From NCBI GenBank assembly GCA_919901855.1, contig CAKKQC010000002.1:40296-104295 (forward strand): 64,000 bases of DNA. Reading direction: 5' to 3'. Position numbers and translations under genes: made by a program. Shown here piece after piece: positions 19,106-59,209 of the stretch. This DNA comes from a bacterium. Its GTDB lineage: Bacteria > Oederibacteriota > CAKKQC01. Numbering within the stretch: the stretch's first letter is position 1; each line of letters opens with the position of its first letter. The notes under the pieces are model-generated. The model was not told where the DNA came from. It did no database searches and saw nothing but the letters and a program-made list of their open reading frames with translations.

Positions 19106-19106
19106 C

Positions 19107-19595
19107 ATGGGAGACCGCGGCCGAAGCCGGCCGCGGAGTTTCGACGGACGTCGAAGCTCCTCTCCCTCAAGAAGGCCGCCCCGGTCGGCCTCGTCCCTGG
19201 TCACGCGATCCGTCCGCGGGACCGAGGCGGCCGGGGCCCGCCTGGCGCGCACGCTGGTCGCCGGCGACTGCGTCTGCCTGATCGGCCCATTGGGTGCGGG
19301 GAAGACGGCGTTTGTCCGGGGGGCGCTCCGCGCCCTGGGAGTCCGCCGCCCGGCGGCCTCCCCGACCTTCGTCCTGGCGCGGGAAGGTTCCGGCCGCGTA
19401 CCGGTCGCCCACCTCGACTTCTACCGCCTGCGGGTCCGGGCCGAGGAGCGCGGCCTGCTCGACTACCTCGACGGGCGTCACGTCGTCTTCGTGGAATGGG
19501 CGGACCGGGATCCGTCCTTCTGGCCCGGGAACGCGATCGTGGTCGTGATCGAGCCGGTCGGCCCGGCGCGGCGGCGCCTCCGGATCTGGTCATGA
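19107..19595 (+). CDS. tsaE: tRNA t6A biosynthesis ATPase TsaE (YjeE) with Arg/Ser/Pro-rich N-terminal extension
   Basis: LIGPLGAGKTAF (P-loop)...SPTF.L..EY...VAHLDFYRL...VEW. ATG immediately follows the ptsI stop. The first ~35 aa are low-complexity (RSRPRSFDGRRSSSPSRRPPRS). Confidence 0.8.
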   Translation: MGDRGRSRPRSFDGRRSSSPSRRPPRSASSLVTRSVRGTEAAGARLARTLVAGDCVCLIGPLGAGKTAFVRGALRALGVRRPAASPTFVLAREGSGRVPVAHLDFYRLRVRAEERGLLDYLDGRHVVFVEWADRDPSFWPGNAIVVVIEPVGPARRRLRIWS

Positions 19596-20311
19596 CGCGG
19601 CGGATCCTCGGACTCGAAACCTCGAGCCCCGACTGCCGGGTGGCGGTGCTGACCGTCACCGGCCGTCCCCGTTCGCTGGCCGAGGCGTTGCGGTCGGGGT
19701 CCGTCGTGGAACGGTCGGGCGCGAGCGAGTTCGCGCGCCACTCCGACGTCGTATACGGCCTGCTCGAGGGCGCGTTGCGCGGCGCCCGGATCAGGCTGGC
19801 GGACCTCGACGGAATCGCGGTATCGATCGGGCCGGGATCGTTCACCGGGCTGCGCGTCGGGCTCACGGTCGCCAAGGTGCTGGCCCGGTTCGGCGGGATC
19901 GGGCTCGCGGCGGTGCCCACCCTCGAGGCGATGGCGGCCGAGGGAATGGCCGGGTCGACGGAGACGGTGTGCGTGCCGTCCGTCGACGCGCGGCGGGGCG
20001 AGGTCTACGCGGCGGTCTACCGCCGCGCCGGGACGCGGGTCCGGAAGACCGGGGGCCCCTGGGTGGCCGGGCCCGGGCGGCTCGCGGCGCTCGCGCCCGC
20101 CGGGGCCCGCTCCGTGACCGGGGCTCCGCGCGCGGCGACGGTGGCCGCGCTGGGACTGCTCCGGCTGCAGGCGGGCCGCGGGGTCGATGCCGCGCGGCTG
20201 GTGCCCCTGTACCTGCGGCGCCCCCAGGCGGTGGAGCAACGCCTCGCGGGCCGGCGCACGTCGATCCGTCGGGATCGACGAGGGTCGGACCGTCCGGGCC
20301 GACCCGGATGA
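19592..20311 (+). CDS. tsaB: tRNA t6A biosynthesis protein TsaB (YeaZ)
   Basis: ATGA overlap with the tsaE stop. ILGLETSSPDCRVAV and GPGSFTGLRVG motifs. Confidence 0.85.
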   Translation: MTRRILGLETSSPDCRVAVLTVTGRPRSLAEALRSGSVVERSGASEFARHSDVVYGLLEGALRGARIRLADLDGIAVSIGPGSFTGLRVGLTVAKVLARFGGIGLAAVPTLEAMAAEGMAGSTETVCVPSVDARRGEVYAAVYRRAGTRVRKTGGPWVAGPGRLAALAPAGARSVTGAPRAATVAALGLLRLQAGRGVDAARLVPLYLRRPQAVEQRLAGRRTSIRRDRRGSDRPGRPG

Positions 20312-20772
20312 TGGAATTCGTTCCCTTCGGGCCTCAGCACCTCGACGCCGTGACCGCGCTCGAGGCCGAGGTGTTCCAGGGCCGGGAACCGTGGAGCCGG
20401 CAGGCGTTCGAAGGCGAGCTGATCAATTCCCAGGCGGTCTGGATCGTGGCCCGGGCCGGGACCGCCGTGATCGGGTACGCGGGCGGCTGGGCGGGCGGCG
20501 CGGAGTTCCACCTCCTGAACCTCGGGGTCGCGGTCCCGTTCCGGCGGCGGGGGGCCGGCCGCGGGCTCGTCCGGGCCGTGCTGGGCGCGGCTGCCGCGCG
20601 CGGGTGCCGCCGGGCGACGCTCGAGGTGCGGAGTTCGAACGAGGGGGCCCGGGCTCTCTACGAATCGTTCGGGTTCCGCTCCGCGGGCGTGCGCCCGCGG
20701 CACTACGGGAACGGCGAGGACGCCGTGATCTACTGGCTCGACGCCGTAGAGGCGGTCAAGATGGCCCTGTAG
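20308..20772 (+). CDS. rimI: Ribosomal-protein-alanine N-acetyltransferase RimI (GNAT)
   Basis: ATG overlaps the tsaB stop. GNAT motif RRRGAGRGLV and conserved YESFGF. Classic tsaE-tsaB-rimI order. Confidence 0.85.
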   Translation: MMEFVPFGPQHLDAVTALEAEVFQGREPWSRQAFEGELINSQAVWIVARAGTAVIGYAGGWAGGAEFHLLNLGVAVPFRRRGAGRGLVRAVLGAAAARGCRRATLEVRSSNEGARALYESFGFRSAGVRPRHYGNGEDAVIYWLDAVEAVKMAL

Positions 20773-20816
20773 TAGTTTCGGCGTCCGCCGAAACTACGCG
20801 GGACGTTCCGTCCCGC
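20772..20816 (+). terminator. Tandem stem-loops after rimI (palindromic-element copy plus 8-bp hairpin)
   Basis: GTAGTTTCGGCG-tc-CGCCGAAACTAC (20772-20797, perfect 12-bp arms) is immediately followed by GCGGGACG-ttc-CGTCCCGC (20798-20816). No U-run. Confidence 0.45.
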
Positions 20817-20894
20817 GAGGTCCGCTTAGAAGCCCTCACCAAACCATGGATTCATCCGCTGCTTCCAGAGGCCGTTGGGGCTTCGCAACGGCCT

Positions 20895-22004
20895 CTACGG
20901 ACCTGCAATAACCTGGAGGCCGACTAGGCCGCAGGCCCGCTCGCCGAACGTCCCCGGATCGGGCGCTGCCGGCCTCCTCGGCGTCGCGGCATCCCAGGAC
21001 GCCGCGCTCAGGTACACGCGCACGACCTCGCCCACGGCGTCGAGCTCGGCCACGCGGCAGTCGGCGGGGTAGGCGTCGAGCACGAGCAGGTGGTCGCCGG
21101 GCAGGATCGCGGCCGCCCGGGTGTAGGTCGCGCACCGCTGCGCGCCGTACTCCTCGACCCGGATGGCGCGGGTCGATCCCCAGGACCACAGGAAACGCCC
21201 CTGCGCGTCGGTGTCGACGACTTCCATGGTCTTTCGGGGCATGAGCGTTCCCGGCGACGCCTGTTCCGGGACGCAGAAACAGCCGTAGAACCGCCAGCGA
21301 TCGGGCGTGACTTCCTCGGCCCGGGAAGCCTCCCAGAGGTGGCAGAGCGCGTCGAGCGGGACGCCCGTCAGCGAGCGCGTGGCCGGGTCGTAGACGGCGA
21401 ACCGCTCGGGATCGCGGAACGCGGCCAGCCAGCGGCCGTCCGCCAGCGGGGCGGCGGAGCGCAGAGACCGGTGCAGCATCTCGCGCTCGACGCGCCACCG
21501 GCGGGAGAGGCAGGCGGCCCACCCCGCGGTCGAGACGAAGACGCCGCCGCCGGCCAGGCCGCGCAGTCCCGTCGGCTGCGGGGGCGAGGCGGCATCGGCG
21601 ACGGCGAGCTGGGCCGCGCTGCGGATCTCGCCCGCGGGGTCCACGACGAGCAGGCGGCTGAACCGGCCGGGCGACCACTGGGCCACCAGCGTCGTGCCGT
21701 CGGCCGCGCGCGAGAACCCGGCGAGCGTGCCGCCGGGGCGCAGCCGGCATTCCCATACCGTGGCGCCCGCGGCGGTCAGCTCGACCAGCCCGTCGTCACC
21801 CCGTTCGTCCGAGGACCATCCGATGAGCAGGTTGCCCGCGGCGTTGAACGCCCCGGGGCGCACCTGCACCGCGGCGCAGGTGCGCGAGGGGACCTTCGCC
21901 GGCCGTACGACTACGGCGGCGGCCTCCGCGGGGTCCTGGGCCACGAGGAGCGAGGCGGCCGCGAGGCCGGGCACGAACAGCCGCCGGAAGCTCATGGCTT
22001 CCAT
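20895..22004 (-). CDS. Hypothetical secreted protein (369 aa)
   Basis: The C-terminal 369 aa of the 707-aa minus ORF start MEAMSFRRLFVPGLAAASLLVAQDPAEA (signal peptide) and have W/Y/C-containing normal composition. The upstream 338 aa are an out-of-frame overlap of the GspE gene. Co-directional and 44 nt downstream of gspE. Confidence 0.5.
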   Translation of the reverse strand: MEAMSFRRLFVPGLAAASLLVAQDPAEAAAVVVRPAKVPSRTCAAVQVRPGAFNAAGNLLIGWSSDERGDDGLVELTAAGATVWECRLRPGGTLAGFSRAADGTTLVAQWSPGRFSRLLVVDPAGEIRSAAQLAVADAASPPQPTGLRGLAGGGVFVSTAGWAACLSRRWRVEREMLHRSLRSAAPLADGRWLAAFRDPERFAVYDPATRSLTGVPLDALCHLWEASRAEEVTPDRWRFYGCFCVPEQASPGTLMPRKTMEVVDTDAQGRFLWSWGSTRAIRVEEYGAQRCATYTRAAAILPGDHLLVLDAYPADCRVAELDAVGEVVRVYLSAASWDAATPRRPAAPDPGTFGERACGLVGLQVIAGP

Positions 22005-24542: not shown

Positions 24543-25351
24543 CGGCGTGATGGCGCCAGGCGCCCGCGCACCAAGCGCGTTGGCGCAGCGAGCCCGAGGG
24601 CGACCATGAGGGCCAGCATCGGTCCGGCCGCGAGGAGGGGGCTGGCATACAGGCCCCAGACGAGCCAGCCGGCAATGGCGGCCAGCCCGACGCGGGCCGC
24701 GGGGTCCGCCCGTCGACCGAAGGCCGGCGGCAGGAGGGTGACGAAGGCGGCCGCCACGAGGAGGACGAGCGCCGCCGCCACTACGAGGCCGCCGTCCGTG
24801 AGGTGATGCCGGTAGAGGTCCGGCGGGTCGAGGGTGACGCTCCCGCGGGCCGTCACGGCCCCCGGGATCTCCGCGGACGCCGACACTCCTCGTGCGGCGG
24901 GAAGCCACCGGCTCGTGAACCGGCCGAATTGGCCCGGGCCCCAGCCGAAGACCGGATGCTGGGTGAACGCGAGCCGGGCCGCGGCGGCTAGATCGCTCCG
25001 GGGGATCCGGATCGCGGGCGGGACGGCGAGGACGACGGCCAGCGCCCCGGCGACGAGCGCGGCGGCGGCGAGCCGGGCCCGGAGCCGGTCCGCGCCGTCT
25101 CGCGGCGGGAAGGCGGCGCGGAGACAGATGCAGAGTAGCGGCCCGCCGACGAGGGGAATCGCCGCGCGCAGAGCCGCAGGGAAGTCCCAGGGCGCGGCGA
25201 GGCCGGCGACCTGCCATGCGGCGGCGTACGCGAGCAGGGCCCAATCGAGGACGTCGAACGGCGCGTTGCGCTTCCACGCGAAGCAGCCGGTGATAATGAG
25301 CGCGGCGGCCAGGGCAGGCAACATCGGGTTCAGGATACCATGGGACATCAT
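24539..25351 (-). CDS. Hypothetical polytopic membrane protein
   Basis: Minus ORF with about 8 hydrophobic helices (LPALAAALIITGCFAW, LLAYAAAWQVAGLAAPW, VVAAALVLLVAAAFVTLL...). Start taken at MMSHG (25351). Start and real-gene status uncertain. Confidence 0.4.
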   Translation of the reverse strand: MMSHGILNPMLPALAAALIITGCFAWKRNAPFDVLDWALLAYAAAWQVAGLAAPWDFPAALRAAIPLVGGPLLCICLRAAFPPRDGADRLRARLAAAALVAGALAVVLAVPPAIRIPRSDLAAAARLAFTQHPVFGWGPGQFGRFTSRWLPAARGVSASAEIPGAVTARGSVTLDPPDLYRHHLTDGGLVVAAALVLLVAAAFVTLLPPAFGRRADPAARVGLAAIAGWLVWGLYASPLLAAGPMLALMVALGLAAPTRLVRGRLAPSRR

Positions 25352-36017: not shown

Positions 36018-36242
36018 TCAGAGGAGTTGGCGGAACTCCTCAATACTCAGCCCGGCATCCTTGATGATCCTGCGCAGGGTGCCGGGCTTGAGGTCACGAC
36101 GGTGCGTCGGGACCGAGACCGGATTCGGATGACCGGACCGATAGAGGATCGCATGGCTTCCGGTGTGATGATCAACATCGAAGCCGGCTCGCCTGAGCGC
36201 CGCGATTGCCTCGTGAGGCCGGCAAACCGGAAGTTTCGGCAC
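36018..36242 (-). CDS. hicA: HicA toxin (mRNA interferase, YcfA-like)
   Basis: 74 aa. LRRAGF...GSHAILYRSGHP...RDLKPGTLRRIIKDAGLS (HicA fold). Confidence 0.85.
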   Translation of the reverse strand: MPKLPVCRPHEAIAALRRAGFDVDHHTGSHAILYRSGHPNPVSVPTHRRDLKPGTLRRIIKDAGLSIEEFRQLL

Positions 36243-39015: not shown

Positions 39016-39043
39016 CGGGGTTTCGGCGGACGCCGAAACCCCG
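39016..39043. repeat. Palindromic repeat element copy (CGGGGTTTCGGCG-ga-CGCCGAAACCCCG)
   Basis: Perfect 13-bp inverted arms with 2-nt spacer. Intergenic, between GH4 and the amidohydrolase. Member of a 4-copy family (20772, 54566, 54743). Confidence 0.85.
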
Positions 39044-45585: not shown

Positions 45586-45657
45586 ATGGCGTTCGCCATC
45601 CGCCAGGAGATCGATAGCCAGGCTTAACGGTCATTTCAGCCTAACAGCGGGGAAATA

Positions 45658-45693
45658 CCTGAACGATATCTCCAGAAGCTGACGCGAAGTCCT
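45658..45693. repeat. Left ~35-bp imperfect direct repeat flanking the R-M cassette
   Basis: cctgaacgatatctccagaagctgacgcgaagtcct. Compare the right copy cccgaacgagctgt-cagaaactgacgcgaatccct at 48806-48840. Confidence 0.6.
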
Positions 45694-45794
45694 GGTAGGC
45701 ACGGGGTTAGCCTCCGGATTCCCGGGATCCCGACTCCAGCGGCCGAAGAGCGCCAGCACGAATCCGAAGATACGGAGGATGCCCCCACTTCCTG

Positions 45795-45800
45795 TACAAT
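45795..45800 (+). promoter_or_regulatory. Candidate -10 (TACAAT) for the R-M cassette operon
   Basis: cctgTACAATcatg, in an AT-richer stretch about 100 nt upstream of the small ORF and the MTase. Confidence 0.25.
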
Positions 45801-45896
45801 CATGTTGTCAATACTGGAGACGATGCGCCACGGTTGGCGTCGGGGCGATTGATCGTGGGGAAGTTGACCGGAGACAGGGGTCTCCAAGATAAGACT

Positions 45897-46052
45897 ATGC
45901 GGCTGGCGGGTAGCGATATTAGAGTCGAGACTCTTGATGACGTGTTGGTGAAGGCCGAGCGAATCTACGGCGAGGTTGAGAAGACGCTGAAGAAAGTGGC
46001 ACCCGAGTACTCGAGGCAGGCCCGCCGAGGGCGAAAGAAGGAGAAGAAATAG
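45897..46052 (+). CDS. Small Lys-rich ORF preceding the methyltransferase (possible regulatory/leader peptide)
   Basis: 51 aa from ATG 45897 (MRLAGSDIRVETLDDVLVKAERIYGEVEKTLKKVAPEYSRQARRGRKKEKK). Its 3' end contains the MTase RBS aaggagaag. Stop TAG overlaps the MTase GTG. Confidence 0.3.
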   Translation: MRLAGSDIRVETLDDVLVKAERIYGEVEKTLKKVAPEYSRQARRGRKKEKK

Positions 46053-47275
46053 TGTCCTTCTCCGTCTCTTCACCCGCGACCGTGATCGACCTCTTCTGTG
46101 GGGCGGGAGGGCTTTCGCTAGGACTGCGACATGCCGGTTGGAGAATTGTCCAGGCGATCGACAGCGATCGCTCTGCCGTTGAAACCTACCGGAACAACCT
46201 TGGTGATGACGTTGTCCAAGCGGAGATTAGCGCTAAAACCGTGCTGTGCGATTCCCTCCTGATTGCTGGTGGACCGCCGTGTCAGGGCTTTTCATCTGCG
46301 GGCCTGCGGAAGAACGGTGACGGCAGAAACAGCCTGGTCAAGGTATTCGCCACTCTGATCGCTCGATATCAACCGAGGGCGTTTCTGTTCGAGAACGTGG
46401 AGGGGTTCTTGACCGCCGAGGGAGGGGCGCGCATCGTTGATCTACTTGGAACGCTCTTGTCCGCTGGCTACAACATACATCTCCGGAAGATTAATGCGGC
46501 CAATTACGGAGTTCCCCAACATAGAAAGCGTGTGATTGCAATCGGTGGCCTCGGCTGGCAGCCGACATTTCCGGAACCGATCTGCCACGCTCGGGGCATG
46601 CCTGGGGCGTCGCGATCGTTCCGCCACCTCCCCCCGGGCCCGTCATTGGCCGAGGCGCTCAGGGGGTTACCAAAGCCAAGCAAAGAACCCCCAGGCGTAC
46701 CACAAGGCCATTTCGAAACTCCGCTGAGTAGCGTTGACGCCGACAGGATTTCACGCCTAGAGATTGGCCAGACAATGCGCGACTTGCCGGGCGCGCTACG
46801 ACATAAGAGCTACCAAAGGCGGGCGTACCGACGCGTCATGGACGGGACGCCGACGGACAAGCGCGGCGGTGCTCCGGCTGGACTTCGAAGGCTCCGTCCC
46901 GATGAACCGTGCAAAGCCATCACGGGAGCCGCCCGGAACGAATTCGTGCATCCTTTGAAAGACCGCTTCCTCACAATCCGCGAGTGTGCGCGGCTGCAAA
47001 CCTTCCCAGACGATTTTGAGTTCTTCGGCTCATCAACCGAGCAATCCACTCTGATCGGGAATGCCGTTCCTTCATTGTTGGCCGAGGTTGTTGGCGCTCA
47101 TCTACTGAAGGAATTGTTGGCGGAACCAGCAAGAGCCGACGGGGGAAAGCTCCTGAGTTTCATTCCAACAATGGCTGAAGGCATGAGTCCCATTCTGGCC
47201 AGGGTAACGCAGCAGGTTCATACCCTCTTTGGAGGCGCGTCCCCGAGTGACGTGCAGCTACCCCTGTGGGTCTGA
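46052..47275 (+). CDS. DNA (cytosine-5)-methyltransferase (Type II R-M modification subunit)
   Basis: Motif I DLFCGAGG, motif IV GGPPCQGFS, motif VI ENV, motif VIII QHRKR, C-terminal RECARLQTFPDDFEF...GNAVP. Confidence 0.9.
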   Translation: MSFSVSSPATVIDLFCGAGGLSLGLRHAGWRIVQAIDSDRSAVETYRNNLGDDVVQAEISAKTVLCDSLLIAGGPPCQGFSSAGLRKNGDGRNSLVKVFATLIARYQPRAFLFENVEGFLTAEGGARIVDLLGTLLSAGYNIHLRKINAANYGVPQHRKRVIAIGGLGWQPTFPEPICHARGMPGASRSFRHLPPGPSLAEALRGLPKPSKEPPGVPQGHFETPLSSVDADRISRLEIGQTMRDLPGALRHKSYQRRAYRRVMDGTPTDKRGGAPAGLRRLRPDEPCKAITGAARNEFVHPLKDRFLTIRECARLQTFPDDFEFFGSSTEQSTLIGNAVPSLLAEVVGAHLLKELLAEPARADGGKLLSFIPTMAEGMSPILARVTQQVHTLFGGASPSDVQLPLWV

Positions 47276-48324
47276 CGCTAACGGAACGGTCGGTGGTTGA
47301 GAAGGCCCGTTCTGGGGGTGGGGCTGACTTGGCCACCACGCTCGATGACGAGGTCTGTGCCTATCTGGTGTCCGTGATTGTCCATGACCTTGGTCTTGCC
47401 GCCAGGATTCCGGAGATGCGGGCCAAGCCAGGGCCCTTCTTCGCCTCGGATTCACCCGAGAAGCTACGACTAAAGGGAGTGGAGTTCTGGGCTGTTCTGG
47501 AACGGCTTGTTGCGGCCAAACGTGACGCGGTCACGTACTTCTCTTGCTTGGCAGCGCTCCATAAGAGCCGTCTGAAGTACGCCAGGATATTGCGGAGCCA
47601 GCCCATACCAACTATGGATCAAGTCGGCCCGAGGGGGCTTCTCCAATACGGCTCGATGAGCCCGCAGGCCTTGACAGGATTGCTGCTGTGGAGGAAGTGG
47701 TTGTACGACATCGACAACCGGGCTGCACAGGAAACCGGCTATCTTTTCGAACCGATCATCGCGCATTCAATAGGCGGTGCCCCGTTCAGTTCGAGTCAGA
47801 GTCCGATAAGGCGGCATGACGATCGCGGGAAGAGAAGGCAAGTGGACTGTGTCAGGGATAAGAGAGCCTATGAATTCAAGATGCGCGTAACGATCGCGGC
47901 ATCAGGACAAGGACGTTGGCGTGAGGAGATGGACTTTCCACTTGACTGCCGCAAGAGCGGCTTCAAACCCGTTCTGCTCGTTTTCGATGGAACGCGCAAT
48001 CCCAAGCTCACCGAGCTCACGAAAGCCTTCCTCAAGTGCGGGGGCGAAACACACGTGGGCGACCATGCATGGCAACACCTGGAGGATGAGGCGGGGGATG
48101 TGATGGCCAGGTTCCTCGACATCTATGTTCGAGGACCGATCCAAGCCCTCCTGAAGGAGGTGCCCGGAGATGTTCTTCCCGAACTTCGGTTGAAGATGAA
48201 CAAACACCGTCTTGTCGTTGCTGTTGGCGGTGAGAGTATGCAGGTCAAGAGGGCCTCGAGGAGATCAGTTGACACGGAGGACCCGATGCCCGTTGACGTT
48301 GGCGACGAATCCCCGGGAGTCTGA
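47266..48324 (+). CDS. Putative Type II restriction endonuclease (PD-(D/E)xK-like) cognate to the m5C MTase
   Basis: GTG 47266 overlaps the MTase stop by 10 nt. 352 aa with no recognisable family. Candidate PD...(D/E)xK: VDCVRD...EFK. Position and overlap are typical of R genes. Confidence 0.55.
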   Translation: MGLTLTERSVVEKARSGGGADLATTLDDEVCAYLVSVIVHDLGLAARIPEMRAKPGPFFASDSPEKLRLKGVEFWAVLERLVAAKRDAVTYFSCLAALHKSRLKYARILRSQPIPTMDQVGPRGLLQYGSMSPQALTGLLLWRKWLYDIDNRAAQETGYLFEPIIAHSIGGAPFSSSQSPIRRHDDRGKRRQVDCVRDKRAYEFKMRVTIAASGQGRWREEMDFPLDCRKSGFKPVLLVFDGTRNPKLTELTKAFLKCGGETHVGDHAWQHLEDEAGDVMARFLDIYVRGPIQALLKEVPGDVLPELRLKMNKHRLVVAVGGESMQVKRASRRSVDTEDPMPVDVGDESPGV

Positions 48325-48371
48325 GGAAGTCCTGTCCTGCGGAAGTCTGATTGATACCATTGGGGTGAACC

Positions 48372-48842
48372 ATGAAGAAGCCGAAAACTCTGGAGCCGAT
48401 CCATCCCGGGGAGATACTCCTGGAGGAGTTCATGAAGCCGATGGGGATCAGCATCAACCGGCTGGCCCGTGACCTTGCCGTCCCGCCGAACCGGGTGAGC
48501 GGTATCGTCAACGGGGCCCGGGCGATCACGGCGGACACCGCCCTGCGGCTCGGTAAGTACTTCGGAGTGTCGCCGGAGATGTGGCTCAGGCTTCAGGCGC
48601 AATATGAACTGCGAGTTGCGCGGCACACACACCCTCGGTTCAAAGAAGCCCATCGAGCTGCTTCGCGAGATGGGAGGGATCCTCAGGTCTTCGGGCATCA
48701 CGAAGCGGGCGGCGCTCAAGATGCTCGAAGCGGCCCGCGCCGACGTCTATCGGTAGGGTTGTCCTCGACGCGGTTGTTCTTGTCTCCGTTGCTTTCGGCG
48801 GCATTCCCGAACGAGCTGTCAGAAACTGACGCGAATCCCTAA
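48372..48842 (+). CDS. higA: HigA-like HTH (XRE-family) antitoxin/controller with C-terminal read-through extension
   Basis: IHPGEILLEEFMKPMGISINRLARDLAVPPNRVSGIVNGARAITADTALRLGKYFGVSPEMWLRLQAQYEL is the canonical HigA core (~90 aa). The ORF then runs 60 more aa through the cassette boundary into the porin remnant before the first stop. Confidence 0.65.
   Translation: MKKPKTLEPIHPGEILLEEFMKPMGISINRLARDLAVPPNRVSGIVNGARAITADTALRLGKYFGVSPEMWLRLQAQYELRVARHTHPRFKEAHRAASRDGRDPQVFGHHEAGGAQDARSGPRRRLSVGLSSTRLFLSPLLSAAFPNELSETDANP
48806..48840. repeat. Right ~35-bp imperfect direct repeat flanking the R-M cassette
   Basis: cccgaacgagctgtcagaaactgacgcgaatccct. It overlaps the stop-codon region of the porin-paralog remnant. 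Confidence 0.6.
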
Positions 48843-49020
48843 CCCGGCGTCGGCGACGGGGGCGGGGATATCCAGGGCCGGGATGGGGATGCCGTTGATC
48901 GTCCGGGGGCCGGACTTCAGCCCGAACCGGAACTCGCCGCCGGGGGCGCCGTAGCGGCCCGAGGATCATCCCGCCACTGAGCAGTTCGAACCGGGCGCGT
49001 GCCATCGCCATGCCGCCGGT
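48821..49020 (-). pseudogene. Decayed 3' fragment of an outer-membrane beta-barrel gene (paralog of the 53324 gene)
   Basis: Minus-strand translation ...YGAPGGEFRFGLKSGPRTINGIPIPALDIPAPVADAGLGIRVSF* is near-identical to the C-terminus of the 53324..54856 protein. About 118 bp are ~90% identical at DNA level to 53340-53460, then homology continues with deletions. No 5' part. Confidence 0.6.
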
Positions 49021-51736: not shown

Positions 51737-52645
51737 TCATCGCCAGGGACCTCCTGCGGGCCAGGTGACATCGAAGGCGTTCCGGCTCGAGGCAGCCTCA
51801 AGCACGGGAGGGAGGAAGAGCCGGAGGCTCTTGCCGACGGAAGCGAAGTCGGTCGGCACATCCGTGAGATCGCCCTTGGTGAGGTATGCCTTCCACTGCT
51901 GGACCTTCCCGGGCTCCTCATAGAACGCCGGGGTCAGCGAGTCCGGCACGGCGGAGGGGATCTGCGTCTGCCGGCTCTTGAACGTTGCGGCGACTGCCAG
52001 GACCAGACGTTGGCCCTCGAAGGAGAAGCTTCTTGACAGCGTCAGGAGATCGTAGAAGTCCTTCATGCGGCTGTTCGCCAGCCCCAGCGACACCATGGCA
52101 TGAAACTTCTCCGCCACGACGGACTCCCGTGAGTAAGCCAGGATTCGCGGCTCCGGACCGTCCAGCAGGACCGGGAACACGATCTCGGCGGCGGGAGGCA
52201 CGAGTGAGTCCCCGAATCCCACGTCCACTTGAAGCGTAACGCGGGCGGTTCCGAGCCGCGCGACGAGGAGCAACCGCACCCCGCCTTCATCGGTGGCGCC
52301 ACGGATGCTGTTCACCCGGATCGTATCCGGCTGAAACTCGAGGCCGTCGTCCGGAACCTGCACCGCGCAGATCTCGCGCACGACTCCGGCCACGTCAGCA
52401 GGATTGCCGGATCCCTGTCCGAGAAGGTCCAAGTCCCGGGTCGCCCGATAGGCCTGCCCGCTCCAGAACGCGAACAGCATCGCCCCCTTGAGGGTGAAGG
52501 CGTTCCTGAACCGGGATTCCCCGAGACGATACAGGAAGCGCTCGGCGGCGTACCGCTGGAGGAGCAGATTGAAGTCCATGTCCCGGTCGCGGGACAGTTG
52601 CAGGAGCCGGTCGTGAACGGAAGCGGGCAGATTGCGGGGGGTCAT
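51737..52645 (-). CDS. abiEii: AbiEii/AbiGii nucleotidyltransferase toxin (Type IV TA, DUF1814)
   Basis: 302 aa. RDLDLLG...VDVGFGD are AbiEii NTase-fold motifs. ATGA overlap with the abiEi stop. Confidence 0.85.
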   Translation of the reverse strand: MTPRNLPASVHDRLLQLSRDRDMDFNLLLQRYAAERFLYRLGESRFRNAFTLKGAMLFAFWSGQAYRATRDLDLLGQGSGNPADVAGVVREICAVQVPDDGLEFQPDTIRVNSIRGATDEGGVRLLLVARLGTARVTLQVDVGFGDSLVPPAAEIVFPVLLDGPEPRILAYSRESVVAEKFHAMVSLGLANSRMKDFYDLLTLSRSFSFEGQRLVLAVAATFKSRQTQIPSAVPDSLTPAFYEEPGKVQQWKAYLTKGDLTDVPTDFASVGKSLRLFLPPVLEAASSRNAFDVTWPAGGPWR

Positions 52646-53250
52646 GCGACCAGCGATTGCAGGTACGGCATGACGACGGTTCTCGCCCGGCAGACGCCGG
52701 CGATCCGCGTGATCTCATCCACCGTCGCTTGCCGTGAGCGGATCGAGTCGCGCAGCGCCTCCAGCGCGACGTCGAGACCTATCTTCCGCCGATAGCGGAA
52801 GCAGTCCACGACCGTCCTGGCTGGCGAGGTGATTAGGATGGTGACGCCGAGCACCTCCTGCGTAACGACGGCGTGAGTGAGCATTCGGCCGGAGAACCGG
52901 ACGATCCGGACGGGCAGACCGGACAGCCGCGGCTTGCGAGCCTTGCGGTCCAGCGCGATCCAAACTGCCTTCGGTGCCTGAGTCCCGATGCCGTGCATGT
53001 GGAGGGCGGTGAGGAGGCATACGACGGCGTGGGGGACGCGCTTGCTGACCATGACTATTGTCACATGCTCGTTCTGGGCTGCTGATGTGAGGCGGTACAG
53101 TCCTCGAGCGACCCGGCTCGCTTCGCCCCGGCGGAGCATGGATTGGATGCGATGGCGGGTACTTCCCGGTTTCTCCAGGTCGGAGGGACGGAATATCCCC
53201 GGGAGGGTCGCGCCCTTGGACGACAGATGAGCACGTCGGTCAGTTCCCAT
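52642..53250 (-). CDS. abiEi: AbiEi antitoxin / transcriptional regulator (Type IV TA)
   Basis: LPGIFRPSDL...SRVARGLYRL (N-terminal wHTH) and conserved C-terminal domain. AT-rich promoter region 53251-53320. Confidence 0.8.
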   Translation of the reverse strand: MGTDRRAHLSSKGATLPGIFRPSDLEKPGSTRHRIQSMLRRGEASRVARGLYRLTSAAQNEHVTIVMVSKRVPHAVVCLLTALHMHGIGTQAPKAVWIALDRKARKPRLSGLPVRIVRFSGRMLTHAVVTQEVLGVTILITSPARTVVDCFRYRRKIGLDVALEALRDSIRSRQATVDEITRIAGVCRARTVVMPYLQSLVA

Positions 53251-53323
53251 GCTTGTACTATGCCGCATATGGTCGGCACCTGCAAGTATGTGCCTACACT
53301 ATGATGTATGCCTTCAGGGAGTG

Positions 53324-54856
53324 CTAGAAACTCACCCGGAGGCCCAGGCCGGCGTCGGCGACGGGGGCGGGGATGTCGAGGGCCGGGATCGGGATGCCAT
53401 TGATCGTCCGGGGGCCGGACTTCAGCCCGAACCGGAACTCGCCGCCGGGGGCGCCGTACCGGCCCGCCACGTACGCCTCGATGCGCAGATGCGTGAGCAG
53501 GACCGCGCCCCAGTCGAGCCGGGCGATGGCCGTGTGGTCCGAGAGGTTGGCGATGTTGGAGAGCGACAAGGACTGGTTCCCGTTCGTGCCGGGAATCGGG
53601 GAGAACGCGTACACGGCGGCGTAATCGCGGGCGAGGTAGAAGGGGGAGAAGCCGCCCTGGAAGATGAGCCAGGGGTATATGACCTTCTTCGTGTACCCGG
53701 CGGATTGGTAGAAGTACTCGGCGCCGATCGTCATCGCTTCCTTGTCCGTGATGTTGAACGACCAGTTGAGCCCGCCCGAGACCGCGGGCGTGAGCTTGTC
53801 GGGGATGTAGGATTCGAGCAACATGCCGCCGCCAGGGATCGGGTTCGCGATCTCGCGCCAGCGCGGATGATCGGTTCCCTTCATGATCACGCCTTCGGCA
53901 TAGACATCGATGGGACCCACGCCGGCGGAGAGGTCGGCGCCCGCCCGCGGGCGGTATCCGCGCTGGGCGATGGCGTCGATCCCGAACTCGCCGGTGCCGA
54001 AGACGGCCTCGGCGCGGGCGGCTCCGCCGATGCGCCCTATGGTGCCGGCGTGGTCGAGGCTCTCGAAGAGCTCCATGGCGTACAGGTTCCAGCCGCGCTT
54101 CTCCCACGGGATATGGACCTTGAGCATGGTTTGGCCGACCCGGGCGTCGAACTGGGCCAGCACGTCGCGGCGGGCGGAGTGGAGCAGGTCGTTGGGGTTC
54201 CAGAACCGGGCCGAGCCCCAGGTCACGTGCTGGCGGCCCGCCGTGACGAATACCGATCTTCCAAGGTCGAAGTTCACCCAGGCCTGGTCGAGCGCGACCG
54301 TGGGGCCGCCGCCGGGCGAGGCGCCGAGGAAGGAGGTCGTGGAGGTGACCGTAGGGTCAAATGACATGCGCGCGCGGAGCATGCCGCGGACGCGGTCGTT
54401 GGGCCGGGCGTCGAACCAGCCGTCGGCCAGGATCGGAACCGAGTTCGTCCAGGCGTCGGGCGGCTGGTGGGTGCCGGCGGTGACTGATTGACGGAGGTAG
54501 AACTGGCCACCGATGGAGAGCGGATTCTCGGGGGCTAACTCCTGGACACCCGAAGCGGGCGTCCGCGGAGTTTCGGCGGACGCCGAAACTCCGAGCGCGG
54601 TGGCGCTTTCGGCGGGGGAGCCGAACATGTCGGCTTCGGCGGCGCGGTTGTCGCCAGGTTCAGCCGCATGGACCGAACCAGAGAAGAGGATGAGCAGGGC
54701 AAAGAGGGCGCGGGTCCTGGTACGTCCGAGGACGGACGACCTGGAGTTTCCGCGGACGCGGAAACTCCTCGTGGGGACCTCGTCGGCGTGGGCCGTACGG
54801 ATTCGGGCTTCGGCGGACCGCTCGGCGGTCTGGCCAAAGCTCGCCTCGCTGCGCAC
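53324..54856 (-). CDS. Outer-membrane beta-barrel (porin-like) protein; start codon unresolved
   Basis: Signal peptide RTRTRALFALLILFSGSVHA-AEP. Amphipathic beta-strand pattern. C-terminal ...GLRVSF* (terminal Phe typical of OM beta-barrels). No ATG/GTG/TTG within 40 codons upstream of the signal peptide. Nearest in-frame GTG at 54856. Two palindromic elements lie in the 5' region. The 338 aa further upstream in the ORF are spurious. Confidence 0.5.
   Translation of the reverse strand: MRSEASFGQTAERSAEARIRTAHADEVPTRSFRVRGNSRSSVLGRTRTRALFALLILFSGSVHAAEPGDNRAAEADMFGSPAESATALGVSASAETPRTPASGVQELAPENPLSIGGQFYLRQSVTAGTHQPPDAWTNSVPILADGWFDARPNDRVRGMLRARMSFDPTVTSTTSFLGASPGGGPTVALDQAWVNFDLGRSVFVTAGRQHVTWGSARFWNPNDLLHSARRDVLAQFDARVGQTMLKVHIPWEKRGWNLYAMELFESLDHAGTIGRIGGAARAEAVFGTGEFGIDAIAQRGYRPRAGADLSAGVGPIDVYAEGVIMKGTDHPRWREIANPIPGGGMLLESYIPDKLTPAVSGGLNWSFNITDKEAMTIGAEYFYQSAGYTKKVIYPWLIFQGGFSPFYLARDYAAVYAFSPIPGTNGNQSLSLSNIANLSDHTAIARLDWGAVLLTHLRIEAYVAGRYGAPGGEFRFGLKSGPRTINGIPIPALDIPAPVADAGLGLRVSF
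54566..54593. repeat. Palindromic repeat element copy (CGGAGTTTCGGCG-ga-CGCCGAAACTCCG)
   Basis: Perfect 13-bp arms. Lies inside the predicted mature N-terminus of the porin-like ORF (encodes GVSASAETP). Confidence 0.85.
54743..54768. repeat. Palindromic repeat element copy (GGAGTTTCCGCG-ga-CGCGGAAACTCC)
   Basis: Perfect 12-bp arms, immediately 5' of the porin signal-peptide codons, where a start codon would be expected. Confidence 0.85.
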
Positions 54857-55026
54857 CGACCTCGCCCAGCGGGGCGTCCTCCATCGCTCGTGCGCCCCGA
54901 AGAACGCCGCCTCCGGTGTAGCCGCGTCGGCTCCGCCGCCGCTATACACCTCCGGCGGCCGGTCCGCACGGCGATGTCGGATCGGTCGGTGAGCTCCACC
55001 GAAGCCCGAATCCGTCCGGCCTGAGA

Positions 55027-55803
55027 TCACCGGCTCTTGGACTCGAGCCAGGCCTTGGTGAAGATGTTGGCCTCGAGGGGCTTGAGGTCGACGGCTTTCA
55101 TGAGCAGGATGGTGGAGTTGGCCTTGTCGACCTCGTCGTAGAAGCGCATCTCCATCGGGTACCAGACGTCGGACCCCTTGGATTCGGAGAAGATCTTCTG
55201 CCATTTGGGGTAGTAGGCGGTGCGCATGAGGCGGCCCGAGAGGGCGAAGTCCTGGCGCTTGAGCGTGTTGCCGGAGGCGACGTCGATCCAGAGCTCGATC
55301 ACGGGGTAGGCGACGTCGATGCCGGGTTTCGCGGTGAGGGCGAGGTGCCGGACGGTGAAGACGCCGAGCTTTTCCTCGCCCTTGTCGGCGGGCTCGTACT
55401 CGACGGCGAGCCGGGACTCGTCGAGGTCCTCGCGGCGCGAGTCGGTGCCGCCGATGCGCTCCCGCTCGGTCCGCCGCTCCCACTTGCCCACGGTGGGGTC
55501 GTACATCCACAGGTTCTTGTCCATGCGGAGGTACCCCTTGCCCGACTCGGCCTTGGGTTTCGTGAACAGGATCATGAACTTCTCGTCCTTATCACGCCGG
55601 AAGACCAGGCACTCGTAGGCGACGTCGGCCTTGTCGCGTTCCTTCTGCTCCATATAGATGAGCGCCTTCCAGTCGCCCTGGTTGCGCTGGCGCTCGTCGA
55701 GCGTCTTGAGCATCGCCACCATGGCTTCCTTCGTGATTGGCGCGCCAGCCGGGATGGCCGGCGTGGCGGCCAGGCAGGCGAGCAGAGCGGCGACGAGCCT
55801 CAT
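55027..55803 (-). CDS. LolA-like outer-membrane lipoprotein-sorting/carrier family protein
   Basis: ATG 55803 (ATGA overlap with the permease stop). Signal peptide MRLVAALLACLAATPAIPAGA. About 258 aa with LolA/DUF1571-like beta-sheet-rich composition. The upstream 118 aa of the ORF are spurious. Confidence 0.65.
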   Translation of the reverse strand: MRLVAALLACLAATPAIPAGAPITKEAMVAMLKTLDERQRNQGDWKALIYMEQKERDKADVAYECLVFRRDKDEKFMILFTKPKAESGKGYLRMDKNLWMYDPTVGKWERRTERERIGGTDSRREDLDESRLAVEYEPADKGEEKLGVFTVRHLALTAKPGIDVAYPVIELWIDVASGNTLKRQDFALSGRLMRTAYYPKWQKIFSESKGSDVWYPMEMRFYDEVDKANSTILLMKAVDLKPLEANIFTKAWLESKSR

Positions 55804-57115: not shown

Positions 57116-59209
57116 CTATTCGTCCGTCGCCATGGCCTGCCGCGGCGTGATGCGGGCGGCGAGCCAGGCGGGGTAGCCGGCCGAGAGGGCGTTCACGATG
57201 AGGACGAGGATGGCCGCGATCACGACGCTCGAGATCCGCAGGAAGGGTTTGAGCCGCGGGCCCGAGAAGAAGAAGAACATGACATCGGACTTGGCGGGAA
57301 TGCCGATCCAGCCGATCAGCTCGACCACGGCGCCTCCGGCCACCGCGCCGGCCCCGCCGAAGATGATCCCGACCACGGCGGCCTCGACCACGATCATGGC
57401 GAAGATGAACCCGCGGCGCGCGCCGACGGCGCGCAGGGTGCCGATGTCACGGACCCGCTCCAGCGTCGCCATGACGAAGGCGTTGGAGAGGACGACGAGG
57501 GCGACGAGGAAGATGATGCCGACGGCGACGAACAGGACCAGGCGCATGAGGAGGACAAGCTGGCCCAGGAGCCCCGCGGCCGTCTGCCAGGAGATGACCT
57601 TGAGCCCGAGCCCCTCCTTCTTCGACAGCGCCTCGATTTCGCGCATCGTCCGCGACATCCGGCGGGGGTCCTTGAGGATGACGGCGGCATTCAGCACCGA
57701 CGCCCGGTCGAGGTCGGCGGGGGTGAACGCCGATCCGGCCCGCCGGGAGGACGCACCGGAGAGGCGGTCGGGGATCCTCACGTCCCCGGTATGGCCCGTC
57801 TGGACGGTGGTGGTCCCGCCGCCGAAGAGGTCCGCTTCCGCCGTCTCGCGGCTGACGGCCTTCGCCCCGGCGGCCTTGCGCATCCCCGCGATCTCGGCCG
57901 TGCTCTCGGTGGTGGGGAAGCCCGAGAGCTCGTTGAACGAGACCAGGTCGATCAGGCACATGGACCCCGCGAGCGCGGACTTCTCCAGGCCCCGGAACTG
58001 GAAGGCGCCGTACACCTTCACGACCACGGACTGCGGGTAGCCGCTCCGGGTCACGGCCTTGATCGTGAGGTCGTCGCCGATCCGGACCTTGTAGAGGTCG
58101 ATCGAGGGGGCCACGTCGGCGTAGAAGAGGCGGTAGCGCTCGGCGAAGTTCGTGTCGTTGATGTCCAGCAGCTTCGCGAGGAGCGCGTCGAGCTTGAGGC
58201 CCGGCAGTTTGAGGTCGCGCTGGAGCGCGCGTTCGACCGCCTCGGCGCCGAGCTGGTCGAGCTGGTACAGGATCTCGTGCGTCTGCGCGACGTTCTCGCC
58301 CGCCCACCGCTTGAGCTCGGGGTCGCGCGCGATCGTCCGGCCGCCGATCTCCTTCGCCTCCTTGATCCGGTCGAGCCGGCGCGCGATCTTGACCTTGAAC
58401 ATCTCCTCGTAGTTGAACTTGGCGAAGAGGAACCCGCGCTTCCCCGGGGGCACGAAGGTTCCGTCCGTGATCTCGAGGCGGTCGAAGGACTTCCGGAACG
58501 CGTCGAGGTCGGTCCCGATGTAGCTCACGAAGAGCATGTCGGCCTCCGCCGCGGCCGGGGCCACCTTGTTCTCGAGGTACTCGAGCGACGCCAGGGGATC
58601 GTCGTCGAATCGCGCCCAGTACGCGGGCTGGGCCGCCCGGTGCACGTTCGCGATCGTGACCGCGTTCTCGGCCTTCTCGCTCGAGATCGAGGCGGCGCTC
58701 AGGAGGTCCTGCTCGAGGAGCTCGACCATGCGGCGGACCAGCGCTTTACGCGCTCCGATCTCGGCGCGCAGGGCCTTCGTGGGCCGCTTCCCCGCCCGCC
58801 GGACCGAGTCCCGGAGCTTTTCGAGGGCGTTGTCGACCACGTTGCCCGAGGTCGCGACCGCGCCGTTGATGCCCATGGGCACGACGGCCTTCACGTTGGG
58901 GAGGGTCAGGAGCCGGTCGCGAACCAGCGGGAACCGGGGGATGGGCGCCAGGTCGGGGAATCCCCCCATGCCGCCGAAGATCTCGAGCTTGTCCTTCGAG
59001 GCGGCGGCGTGGACCTGGATGTGGCCGGCCAGGCTGTCCACGATGGACCGGCTCATGCCGTCGTTCACGCTCTCGAGGAGCGAGAGGCCGAGCACGACGA
59101 GGAAGGCGCCGGCGAAGACGATCGATCCCACGATCAGGGTCTTGAGCCGCGCCGCGAAGAGGTTGCGGAAGGCCATCCGGACGAGGAGGACGAACGTGTC
59201 GGGGTTCAC
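57116..59209 (-). CDS. ABC transporter permease (FtsX-type, large periplasmic domain)
   Basis: 697 aa. Same topology. RVRDIGTLRAVGARRGFIF signature. Long periplasmic insert. Confidence 0.85.
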   Translation of the reverse strand: MNPDTFVLLVRMAFRNLFAARLKTLIVGSIVFAGAFLVVLGLSLLESVNDGMSRSIVDSLAGHIQVHAAASKDKLEIFGGMGGFPDLAPIPRFPLVRDRLLTLPNVKAVVPMGINGAVATSGNVVDNALEKLRDSVRRAGKRPTKALRAEIGARKALVRRMVELLEQDLLSAASISSEKAENAVTIANVHRAAQPAYWARFDDDPLASLEYLENKVAPAAAEADMLFVSYIGTDLDAFRKSFDRLEITDGTFVPPGKRGFLFAKFNYEEMFKVKIARRLDRIKEAKEIGGRTIARDPELKRWAGENVAQTHEILYQLDQLGAEAVERALQRDLKLPGLKLDALLAKLLDINDTNFAERYRLFYADVAPSIDLYKVRIGDDLTIKAVTRSGYPQSVVVKVYGAFQFRGLEKSALAGSMCLIDLVSFNELSGFPTTESTAEIAGMRKAAGAKAVSRETAEADLFGGGTTTVQTGHTGDVRIPDRLSGASSRRAGSAFTPADLDRASVLNAAVILKDPRRMSRTMREIEALSKKEGLGLKVISWQTAAGLLGQLVLLMRLVLFVAVGIIFLVALVVLSNAFVMATLERVRDIGTLRAVGARRGFIFAMIVVEAAVVGIIFGGAGAVAGGAVVELIGWIGIPAKSDVMFFFFSGPRLKPFLRISSVVIAAILVLIVNALSAGYPAWLAARITPRQAMATDE

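Follow-up and report, generated by a model that had tools for sequence, protein, structure and literature searches.

We analyzed a 64 kb stretch of contig CAKKQC010000002.1 (assembly GCA_919901855.1, Oederibacteriota; positions 40,296 to 104,295; G+C content 68.6%), referred to here as the window, for a family of short palindromes whose copies lie between genes and inside open reading frames (ORFs), including two in a porin-like gene. Rather probably, these palindromes are lineage-restricted, small, non-autonomous hairpin repeats resembling repetitive extragenic palindromic (REP) elements, which have spread to many unrelated sites and are tolerated when they are translated.

A dispersed palindrome family in the window and in metagenomes

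The preliminary description of the window had listed four copies with perfect arms of 12–13 bp flanking a GA or TC centre, and all four were confirmed at their positions. The 20-nt core GTTTCSGCGNNCGCSGAAAC gave four exact matches in the window and six when up to three mismatches were allowed. At this tolerance, dinucleotide shuffles of the window led to an expectation of 0.32 matches (sd 0.57), and a chance origin was rejected because none of 100 shuffles reached six. With its frequency far above the shuffled expectation, the palindrome set is a real dispersed REP-like family and not a coincidence, as had been proposed. The window has seven perfect hairpins whose stem is 10 bp or longer, and four of these belong to this family. 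Altogether, the window contains five good copies and four decayed relatives.

Outside the window, a scan with the bare core in one genome per species returned at least 115 singletons, spread over unrelated taxa and with no fixed dinucleotide at the centre; the core alone is therefore an occasional ordinary hairpin in those genomes. For the metagenome scan, the longer exact pattern GRGTTTCSGCGGACGCSGAAACYC was used, which identified 91 loci concentrated in a handful of samples. Sixty-three unique metagenome copies resemble the window type, in which the conserved palindrome (H2) is accompanied by a second hairpin (H1) and the flanks are unrelated. The element density amounts to approximately one per 8–13 kb. 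The window porin protein is identical to MEK7474324.1, encoded by a metagenome-assembled genome labelled Candidatus Coatesbacteria, from which the window appears to derive, and the related loci L208 and L210 show the gene order of the window with 78–79% protein identity. A second metagenome group consists of a multi-hairpin repeat of about 150 bp (28 copies) whose centre, GGGTTTCCGCGGACGCGGAAACCC, is a hairpin of the window type but with flanks conserved on both sides, and which is located in contigs of two samples, Ga0265331 and Ga0265328 (L116–L199, e.g. L135 1034–1228) and has no significant Rfam match.

Several known element classes were rejected. The exact pattern GRGTTTCSGCGGACGCSGAAACYC was not found in viral contigs, which argues against a phage origin. 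A CRISPR array does not fit, since the copies are isolated and kilobases apart, while the porin pair is separated by 176 nt and lies in or beside coding sequence. No T run follows the G+C-rich hairpin in any window copy, and a terminator scan of 18900–21100 was empty; intrinsic terminators were discarded for lack of the T run. A known RNA family was likewise dismissed, as a comparison with Rfam 15 was negative both for the window at the gathering score and for 54400–55100 at E ≤ 1. A full-text literature search for the hairpin sequence retrieved no paper, and a search for 'Coatesbacteria' retrieved none on repeats. Besides that, several metagenome contigs have an end that coincides, to within a few bases, with a family hairpin (e.g. 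L130, L141, L166, L170, L206), which suggests that the hairpin breaks assemblies.

Two-hairpin anatomy and compensated stem changes

All copies were oriented by their centre, GGAC. The conserved hairpin H2 is 26 nt long, GGAGTTTCGGCG-GA-CGCCGAAACTCC, and this 26-mer is identical in 38/83 copies. H1 usually lies 0–4 nt upstream of H2, on one fixed side, and has a stem of 6–10 bp whose sequence varies by copy and a purine-rich loop (AAG, AGGA, GA or AAGC). The full unit of H1 and H2, typically with a gap of 1–2 nt, spans about 45–50 nt, with 45 nt (15 codons) being the commonest length. Within 6 nt of H2, perfect hairpins with stems of 6 bp or more were present upstream in 49/83 copies compared with 6/83 downstream, and among the related loci the upstream flanks fold better than the downstream ones (Wilcoxon p = 7.6e-6). 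Identical H1 subtypes, and even identical 45-nt units, reappear at unrelated loci, and tandem H2–H2 pairs are rare (L154, L206). As RNA, each H1 with its H2 is predicted to fold into two neighbouring stem-loops, with energies between −34 and −39 kcal/mol (z −4.7 to −6.9).

Conservation of pairing was assessed at the only two base pairs that the scan pattern left free, using the 63 unique window-type copies. The two positions were complementary in 61/63 and 63/63 copies, respectively (Fisher 1e-8 and 1.6e-12). Further symmetric stem variants comprise GCC/GGC, CAG/CTG, TTCC/GGAA, CACC/GGTG, GGGG/CCCC and CGAG/CTCG. Since changes in one arm are compensated in the other, the constraint acts on the hairpin and not on the peptide or on protein half-sites; it may stem from selection, with copying restricted to hairpins, or from repair of palindromes by template switching. 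Two readings offered in the preliminary description fare worse in this light. [quoted passage not shown] A separate observation concerns two orthologous proteins of about 880 amino acids that carry the element at the same site with opposite centres (L122 5221–5248, GVSADAETP; L143 2777–2804, GVSASAETP), with a clear H1 in just one of the two. This could reflect independent acquisition or a flip of the centre.

Copies in the window

As an unbiased sample, the window holds three intergenic copies (1, 2 and 5), two copies in the porin ORF (3 and 4) and one diverged in-frame copy, with a clear H1 in four of the five good copies. Copy 1 (20772–20797, minus strand) is a GTAG...CTAC variant with its GGAC centre on the minus strand. 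It begins at the final base of the TAG stop of a rimI-like gene, the flanking genes are convergent, and its variable H1 (20798–20816, minus strand) reads GCGGGACG-GAA-CGTCCCGC; H2 and H1 together fold at −33.9 kcal/mol (z −5.7). Copy 2 (39016–39043, plus strand) has 13-bp arms and is located 22 nt past the stop codon of the gene for a family-4 glycoside hydrolase; 57 nt separate it from the next gene. Its H1 is weak. Copy 3 (54566–54593, plus strand), CGGAGTTTCGGCG-GA-CGCCGAAACTCCG, carries the GGAC centre on the plus strand, antisense to the porin gene. Its H1 (54544–54564, plus strand), GGACACCCG-AAG-CGGGCGTCC, contains one mismatch and forms part of RTPASGVQ in the porin frame; the pair folds at −39 kcal/mol (z −4.8). 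Copy 4 (54743–54768, plus strand) is a CCGCG/CGCGG variant upstream of the porin signal-peptide core, and with its H1 CGTCCG-AGGA-CGGACG (54723–54738, plus strand) it reaches −35 kcal/mol (z −6.9). The folding check proposed earlier thus returned stable adjacent stem-loops for the window copies, with copy 2 being weaker (−27 kcal/mol, z −2.7).

The diverged fifth copy (19135–19160, plus strand), GGAGTTTCGACG-GA-CGTCGAAGCTCC (in full GGAGTTTCGACGGACGTCGAAGCTCC), was found as a three-mismatch match 29 nt past the stop of a gene for a PEP-utilising enzyme. One G:C pair of its stem is replaced by A:T, compensated on both arms, and one G:T wobble is present; its H1 (19117–19134, plus strand) is GCGGCCG-AAGC-CGGCCGC. 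The four decayed relatives are all on the plus strand except the last. An in-frame intragenic relative (6332–6351), CTTCCGGCG-TC-CGCCGGAAG, reads LPASAG, corresponds to the TTCC/GGAA variant of other loci and is followed by a small hairpin (6359–6374), the two together spanning 6332–6374. A degenerate copy (24864–24889, GGGATCTCCGCGGACGCCGACACTCC) has arms that are no longer complementary. About 20 nt past a stop codon, a short hairpin made up of the outer arms only (36021–36041, GAGGAGTT-GGCGG-AACTCCTC) may, judging from its sequence, be a deletion derivative of the family. Finally, a non-palindromic relic (57791–57816, minus strand, GGACCACCACCGTCCAGACGGGCCAT) lies inside an FtsX-type permease gene. 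The second variable hairpin, the fifth copy and the one-frame intragenic half of the copies in related genomes were absent from the preliminary description. Independently of the family, three unrelated perfect hairpins with stems of 10–11 bp occur at 14580–14605, 20867–20896 and 21858–21885; one is intragenic, one covers the stop of the minus-strand gene adjoining copy 1 and one lies inside that gene.

Most intragenic copies share one reading frame

As the metagenome loci are unannotated, genes were called with a custom gene finder based on codon usage, which reproduces the database calls of L208–L210 and gives a sensible gene map of the window. The gene context was analyzed for the 75 unique copies whose flanks extended over 200 nt or more, and a copy was considered deep if located more than 150 nt inside a strong ORF. 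Based on this gene finder and on loci picked for carrying the element, 36/75 unique copies were deep intragenic. Of these, 34/36 share a single frame (frame 0; binomial p = 1.7e-14), which reads GGA GTT TCG GCG GAC/TCC GCC GAA ACT CCN and encodes G-V-S-A-(D/S)-A-E-T-P. The remaining 39 copies were distributed among frame 0 near ORF ends (11), other frames near ORF ends (9) and intergenic regions (19). Because the nine copies in other frames are all near ORF ends, they are probably untranslated. Owing to the palindromic sequence, the peptide is nearly the same in both orientations (GVSADAETP or GVSASAETP), and the shadow frame of the opposite strand is also frame 0, so the result is independent of the choice of strand. 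The commonest H1 adds GVEATP or GVASTP. The 26-mer contains no stop codon in any frame or orientation, and relative to the host gene the element is oriented in the same direction in 19 cases and in the opposite direction in 32.

The host ORFs match 89 Pfam families, and many of the intragenic copies come after signal peptides or membrane helices. Wherever host domains could be assigned, copies fall at their boundaries: one separates Memo from AMMECR1, a second separates the E3-binding domain of an E2 acyltransferase from its catalytic domain, a third separates Fer4 from HEAT in QueG, and another is placed ahead of the C-terminal domain of TamB. In the flanks of the element, A, P, G, S and T together account for 46.9% compared with 40.7%, a modestly linker-like composition. 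Compensated DNA changes give rise to peptide variants such as GVSPSGETP, AVPADAGTA and GVSTSVETP. The frame bias leads us to infer that the intragenic copies are translated and tolerated in unrelated proteins. Among the intergenic copies, 9–10/17 lie within 30 nt past a stop codon, and the neighbouring genes are arranged in tandem (12), convergently (2) or divergently (4).

The porin gene and comparison of orthologous sites

Copies 3 and 4 lie in a porin-like beta-barrel gene that extends from 53324 to 55030 on the minus strand, with the core of its signal peptide at about 54715–54665. Both copies had been proposed to be translated into VSASAETP-like peptides, which holds for copy 3 (GVSASAETP) but not for copy 4, which in the same frame yields RSFRVRGNS upstream of the signal peptide. 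In the predicted structural model, residues 1–109 have a pLDDT below 50 and the barrel begins at residue 113; the element-encoded residues 89–105 lie in the low-confidence segment ahead of the predicted barrel. One copy had also been thought to occupy the place of the start codon. Indeed, about 300 nt of repeat DNA, comprising in order a 231-bp unit and copy 4 with its H1, are inserted between the ancestral porin start and the signal-peptide core. However, the ancestral GTG (55030–55028) is retained upstream, where it overlaps the preceding stop codon (GTGA, 55030–55027), and copy 4 is therefore a copy in a leader or N-terminal extension and no start-codon replacement.

The TP_0789/LolA-like gene lying upstream shares 4 nt with the porin gene in relatives (ATGA; L208 10001–10004, L210 8103–8106), which suggests translational coupling that the repeat insertion disrupts in the window and in L207. 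The latter shares the insertion of about 300 nt, and its copy 4 differs by one mismatch. The porin frame is open through the insertion in both, yet there is no conserved internal start codon, and substitutions are spread over the codon positions (8/14/11) without third-position bias. Public annotations of the window porin differ and use two GTG starts (510 and 541 amino acids). Look-ups for an exact match to the 541-amino-acid form, and to the family-4 glycoside hydrolase protein, were negative. The 231-bp unit itself (54791–55021) is bounded by 27-nt inverted repeats (54791–54817 and 54995–55021) that are 93% complementary. Diverged copies are found in L207 (87%), L185 9149–9364 (74%), L177 8376–8493 (79%) and L174 324–449, of which the L177 copy also adjoins a family hairpin; the unit is a second, MITE-like repeat family.

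The linker element of the porin is present in the window and in L208 (79% identity), is decaying in L213 and is missing in L210 and in L207, the closest relative (86%). In a relative with 93% identity the contig ends short of the N-terminus. The check proposed earlier, whether porins of relatives lack the elements, thus gave a mixed outcome: L207 and L210 lack the linker element, L208 and L213 have it, and L207 shares copy 4. Similarly, in the FtsX-type permease gene, L208 and L210 share a perfect variant, GGAGTTTCACCG-TC-CGGTGAAACTCC, with two compensated pairs (CACCG/CGGTG) and with different H1 hairpins, and the window has its non-palindromic relic at the same place; the CACCG arm is common to this relic. 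Further orthologous sites behaved in the same way. Decay in L213 and in the window FtsX gene, together with loss from some orthologues, indicates that the element is not essential.

Proposed explanation and alternatives

We favour the view that the unit of H1 and H2 spreads, or is copied, to many unrelated sites, and that copies would persist only where they do little harm, that is, just past stop codons or, in one frame, in disordered linkers. There, in-frame copies would yield a small flexible peptide, GVSADAETP or GVSASAETP, often extended by GVEATP or GVASTP. Copying would be transposition-like and hairpin-dependent, and would probably act on DNA in single-stranded form, by analogy with REPs and the tyrosine transposases that serve them, and the frame bias would arise from purifying selection on the encoded peptide. 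A candidate enzyme was sought by tblastn with transposase queries in about 0.9 Mb around the elements. This region contains one tyrosine transposase gene (PF01797, Y1_Tnp; L132 12313–13263, minus strand; Joint Genome Institute annotation RayT), with a 97% homologue in L215 (63–1043) and L216 (160–1140). The protein shows HYH and YIHMNPVRAGL motifs and a C-terminal extension of about 170 amino acids. The gene is 3 kb from a family hairpin, its 3' end overlaps the next gene, and two assemblies break 62–160 nt upstream of it.

A number of observations weigh against this explanation. In three assemblies, the 62–160 nt available upstream of the PF01797 gene contain no family hairpin. The orthologue comparisons revealed neither a clean empty site nor a target duplication, and BLAST searches with joined flanks returned just diverged orthologues lacking clean borders. 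Element-bearing alleles are only 15–27 nt longer than element-free orthologues, compared with a unit of 45–50 nt, and in QueG the element peptide stands where the solved Bacillus enzyme has a segment of roughly the same length. Flank logos showed no conserved target motif, and near-identical sequences did not differ in presence or absence of the element, hence giving no sign of recent mobility. Moreover, the gene calls at the metagenome loci come from a custom, non-validated finder, and the frame bias could be due to a phase-specific copying mechanism instead of selection. With the compared genomes being 13–25% diverged, insertion followed by indels in the linker is possible, and so is replacement.

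Replacement is the basis of one alternative, in which copies are written into existing linkers by short-patch gene conversion or template switching, maybe with a preference for codon phase. Quasi-palindromes are known to be corrected by template switching, an established route of mutation. Element-bearing and element-free orthologues differ little in length, with the 'empty' alleles holding other sequence of similar length; the equal exchange in QueG, the CACCG arm common to the FtsX variant and the window relic and the extreme frame bias point in the same direction. Nevertheless, we regard it as decidedly unlikely: identical 45-nt units at unrelated loci would still require copying between loci, the flanks show no detectable homology between donor and recipient, and at the given divergence plain insertion with subsequent linker indels explains the same data. 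The hairpins might also be host RNA elements, namely terminators, 3'-end stabilisers of mRNA or processing sites, each regulating its neighbouring gene. Window copies 1, 2 and 5 lie 0–29 nt past stop codons, as do 9–10 of the 17 related intergenic copies, the stems are very stable, and REPs are thought to act in this way (PMC3733652). This role is nonetheless unlikely for the family as a whole, considering the missing T tract, the empty terminator scan and the lack of an Rfam match, the position of about half of the copies deep inside ORFs and the loss or decay of the element at orthologous sites. In addition, the occurrence of both orientations (19 same, 32 opposite) means that the RNA loop would be either GGAC or GUCC.

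An improbable but more far-reaching possibility is that the unit represents a mobile cassette specialised for genes, written in a fixed codon phase by replacement so as to give a harmless flexible linker every time, or that its very stable hairpins in the mRNA now serve to pause translation at the borders of domains and behind signal peptides. If true, either would constitute an undescribed way for selfish DNA to shape linkers proteome-wide. By analogy with nucleoid-associated or parS/Noc-type systems, the palindrome could instead be the binding site of a dimeric DNA-binding protein. The perfect dyad and the conserved 26-mer (38/83 identical) are what such a site, which can be intragenic, would show, and the outer GTTTC...GAAAC appears to resemble parS half-sites. 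We consider this quite improbable, as the compensated arm changes are needed by a hairpin and not by a recognised half-site, the asymmetric centre correlates with the side of H1, the density of one element per 8–13 kb is far above that of parS-type sites and the spacing of the half-sites is off by 10 bp. Hardly any weight can be given to the idea that the peptide GVSA(S/D)AETP is what is conserved, as a linker with a function or as a motif for modification, and that the palindrome in the DNA is incidental. The single reading frame and the frequent placement after signal peptides and between domains would suit such a motif, but synonymous sites are invariant across loci, while compensated DNA changes alter the peptide freely; furthermore, the central residue is D or S depending on the orientation, and the many intergenic copies contradict a function of the peptide.

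If the palindromes are tolerated REP-like repeats, as we favour, they have consequences for both annotation and evolution. Such hairpins break assemblies, mislead start calls, as in the porin gene, and add spurious 'motifs' to proteins. At the same time, they readily supply sequence for linkers and make orthologues vary in length.

Neighbouring regions of the window

Beside the porin gene, a region of 65% G+C contains two adjacent minus-strand ORFs (51737–53268; 302 and 208 amino acids), whose translations, on visual inspection, look like a toxin of the nucleotidyltransferase type with its antitoxin. Further away, an island of low G+C content (45600–48900; 56–62% versus about 69–70% in the flanks) received no genes from the finder trained on high-G+C sequence. 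It contains ORFs for a C5 DNA-methyltransferase-like protein (46052–47275), an overlapping protein of 352 amino acids (47266–48324) and a small helix-turn-helix protein (48372–48842), and judged by these ORFs it looks like an acquired restriction-modification module.

Comparison with known repeat systems

Uptake signal sequences and DNA uptake sequences (USS/DUS) are over-represented intragenic motifs of 8–12 bp with frame preferences, and their intergenic copies can form hairpins after genes. HIP1 of cyanobacteria is likewise a short over-represented motif that is common inside genes (PMC5861425). The family described here shares with these the short length, the over-representation, the frequent intragenic position and the frame preference. 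However, USS/DUS and HIP1, all of 8–12 bp, can arise by point mutation, which is not plausible for a 26-nt palindrome with a second hairpin. Like MITEs, the family is short, non-coding, dispersed and presumably mobilised in trans, but it is a plain hairpin without internal segment, separate terminal repeats or target duplication.

REPs are stem-loops of 20–40 bp with complementary variants among subfamilies, are mostly located downstream of ORFs and, in the GTAG and CGTC super-families, bear the respective tetranucleotide unpaired at one end (PMC3733652). The family resembles them in its short GC-rich stem-loop (26–28 bp), its many dispersed copies, its complementary stem variants and the position of intergenic copies near the 3' ends of ORFs, where a copy can abut the stop codon. 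In contrast to REPs, it has no unpaired GTAG/CGTC tag: GGAG/CTCC is part of the stem, GTAG occurs in copy 1 only and is paired there, CGTC precedes H2 in about 10/88 copies, and the flanks are almost devoid of information. Unlike in REP dimers, that is, bacterial interspersed mosaic elements (BIMEs) and REP doublets forming hairpins (REPINs), the partner of H2 is a different, variable hairpin in tandem and not an inverted second copy, be it head-to-head or tail-to-tail. REPs are associated with tyrosine transposase genes (RAYTs) flanked by the repeat; in the roughly 0.9 Mb covered here, which hold a single PF01797 gene, no transposase gene flanked by the hairpins was found. What is known about the mobilisation of REPs does not explain the missing clean empty sites or the fixed attachment of a variable hairpin. 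Di Nocera, De Gregorio and Rocco (2013, PMC3733652) describe REPs that are intragenic and translated, a minority class known from Opitutus terrae, Rickettsia conorii and other organisms. In the present family, roughly half of all copies are located inside genes, in a single frame, whereas REPs are predominantly extragenic.

In this respect, the family is closer in kind to the Rickettsia palindromic elements (RPEs), palindromic repeats that occur in frame in many unrelated genes, are translated as a tolerated peptide and are found in intergenic regions as well. These elements were reportedly presented by Ogata et al. in 2000 as 'selfish DNA in protein-coding genes'. RPE-1 measures about 100–150 bp and belongs to AT-rich, obligate intracellular alphaproteobacteria, whereas the family comprises 26 nt (45–50 nt with H1), is thus three to five times shorter, and occurs in a free-living candidate-phylum lineage with 69% G+C. 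A sequence relationship between the two is not expected. With both orientations encoding essentially the same peptide and one frame holding for almost all intragenic copies, the palindromes form an unusually clean case. The phenomenon of selfish DNA inside protein-coding genes, best known from Rickettsia, would thereby reach a high-G+C uncultured candidate phylum and a much smaller element.

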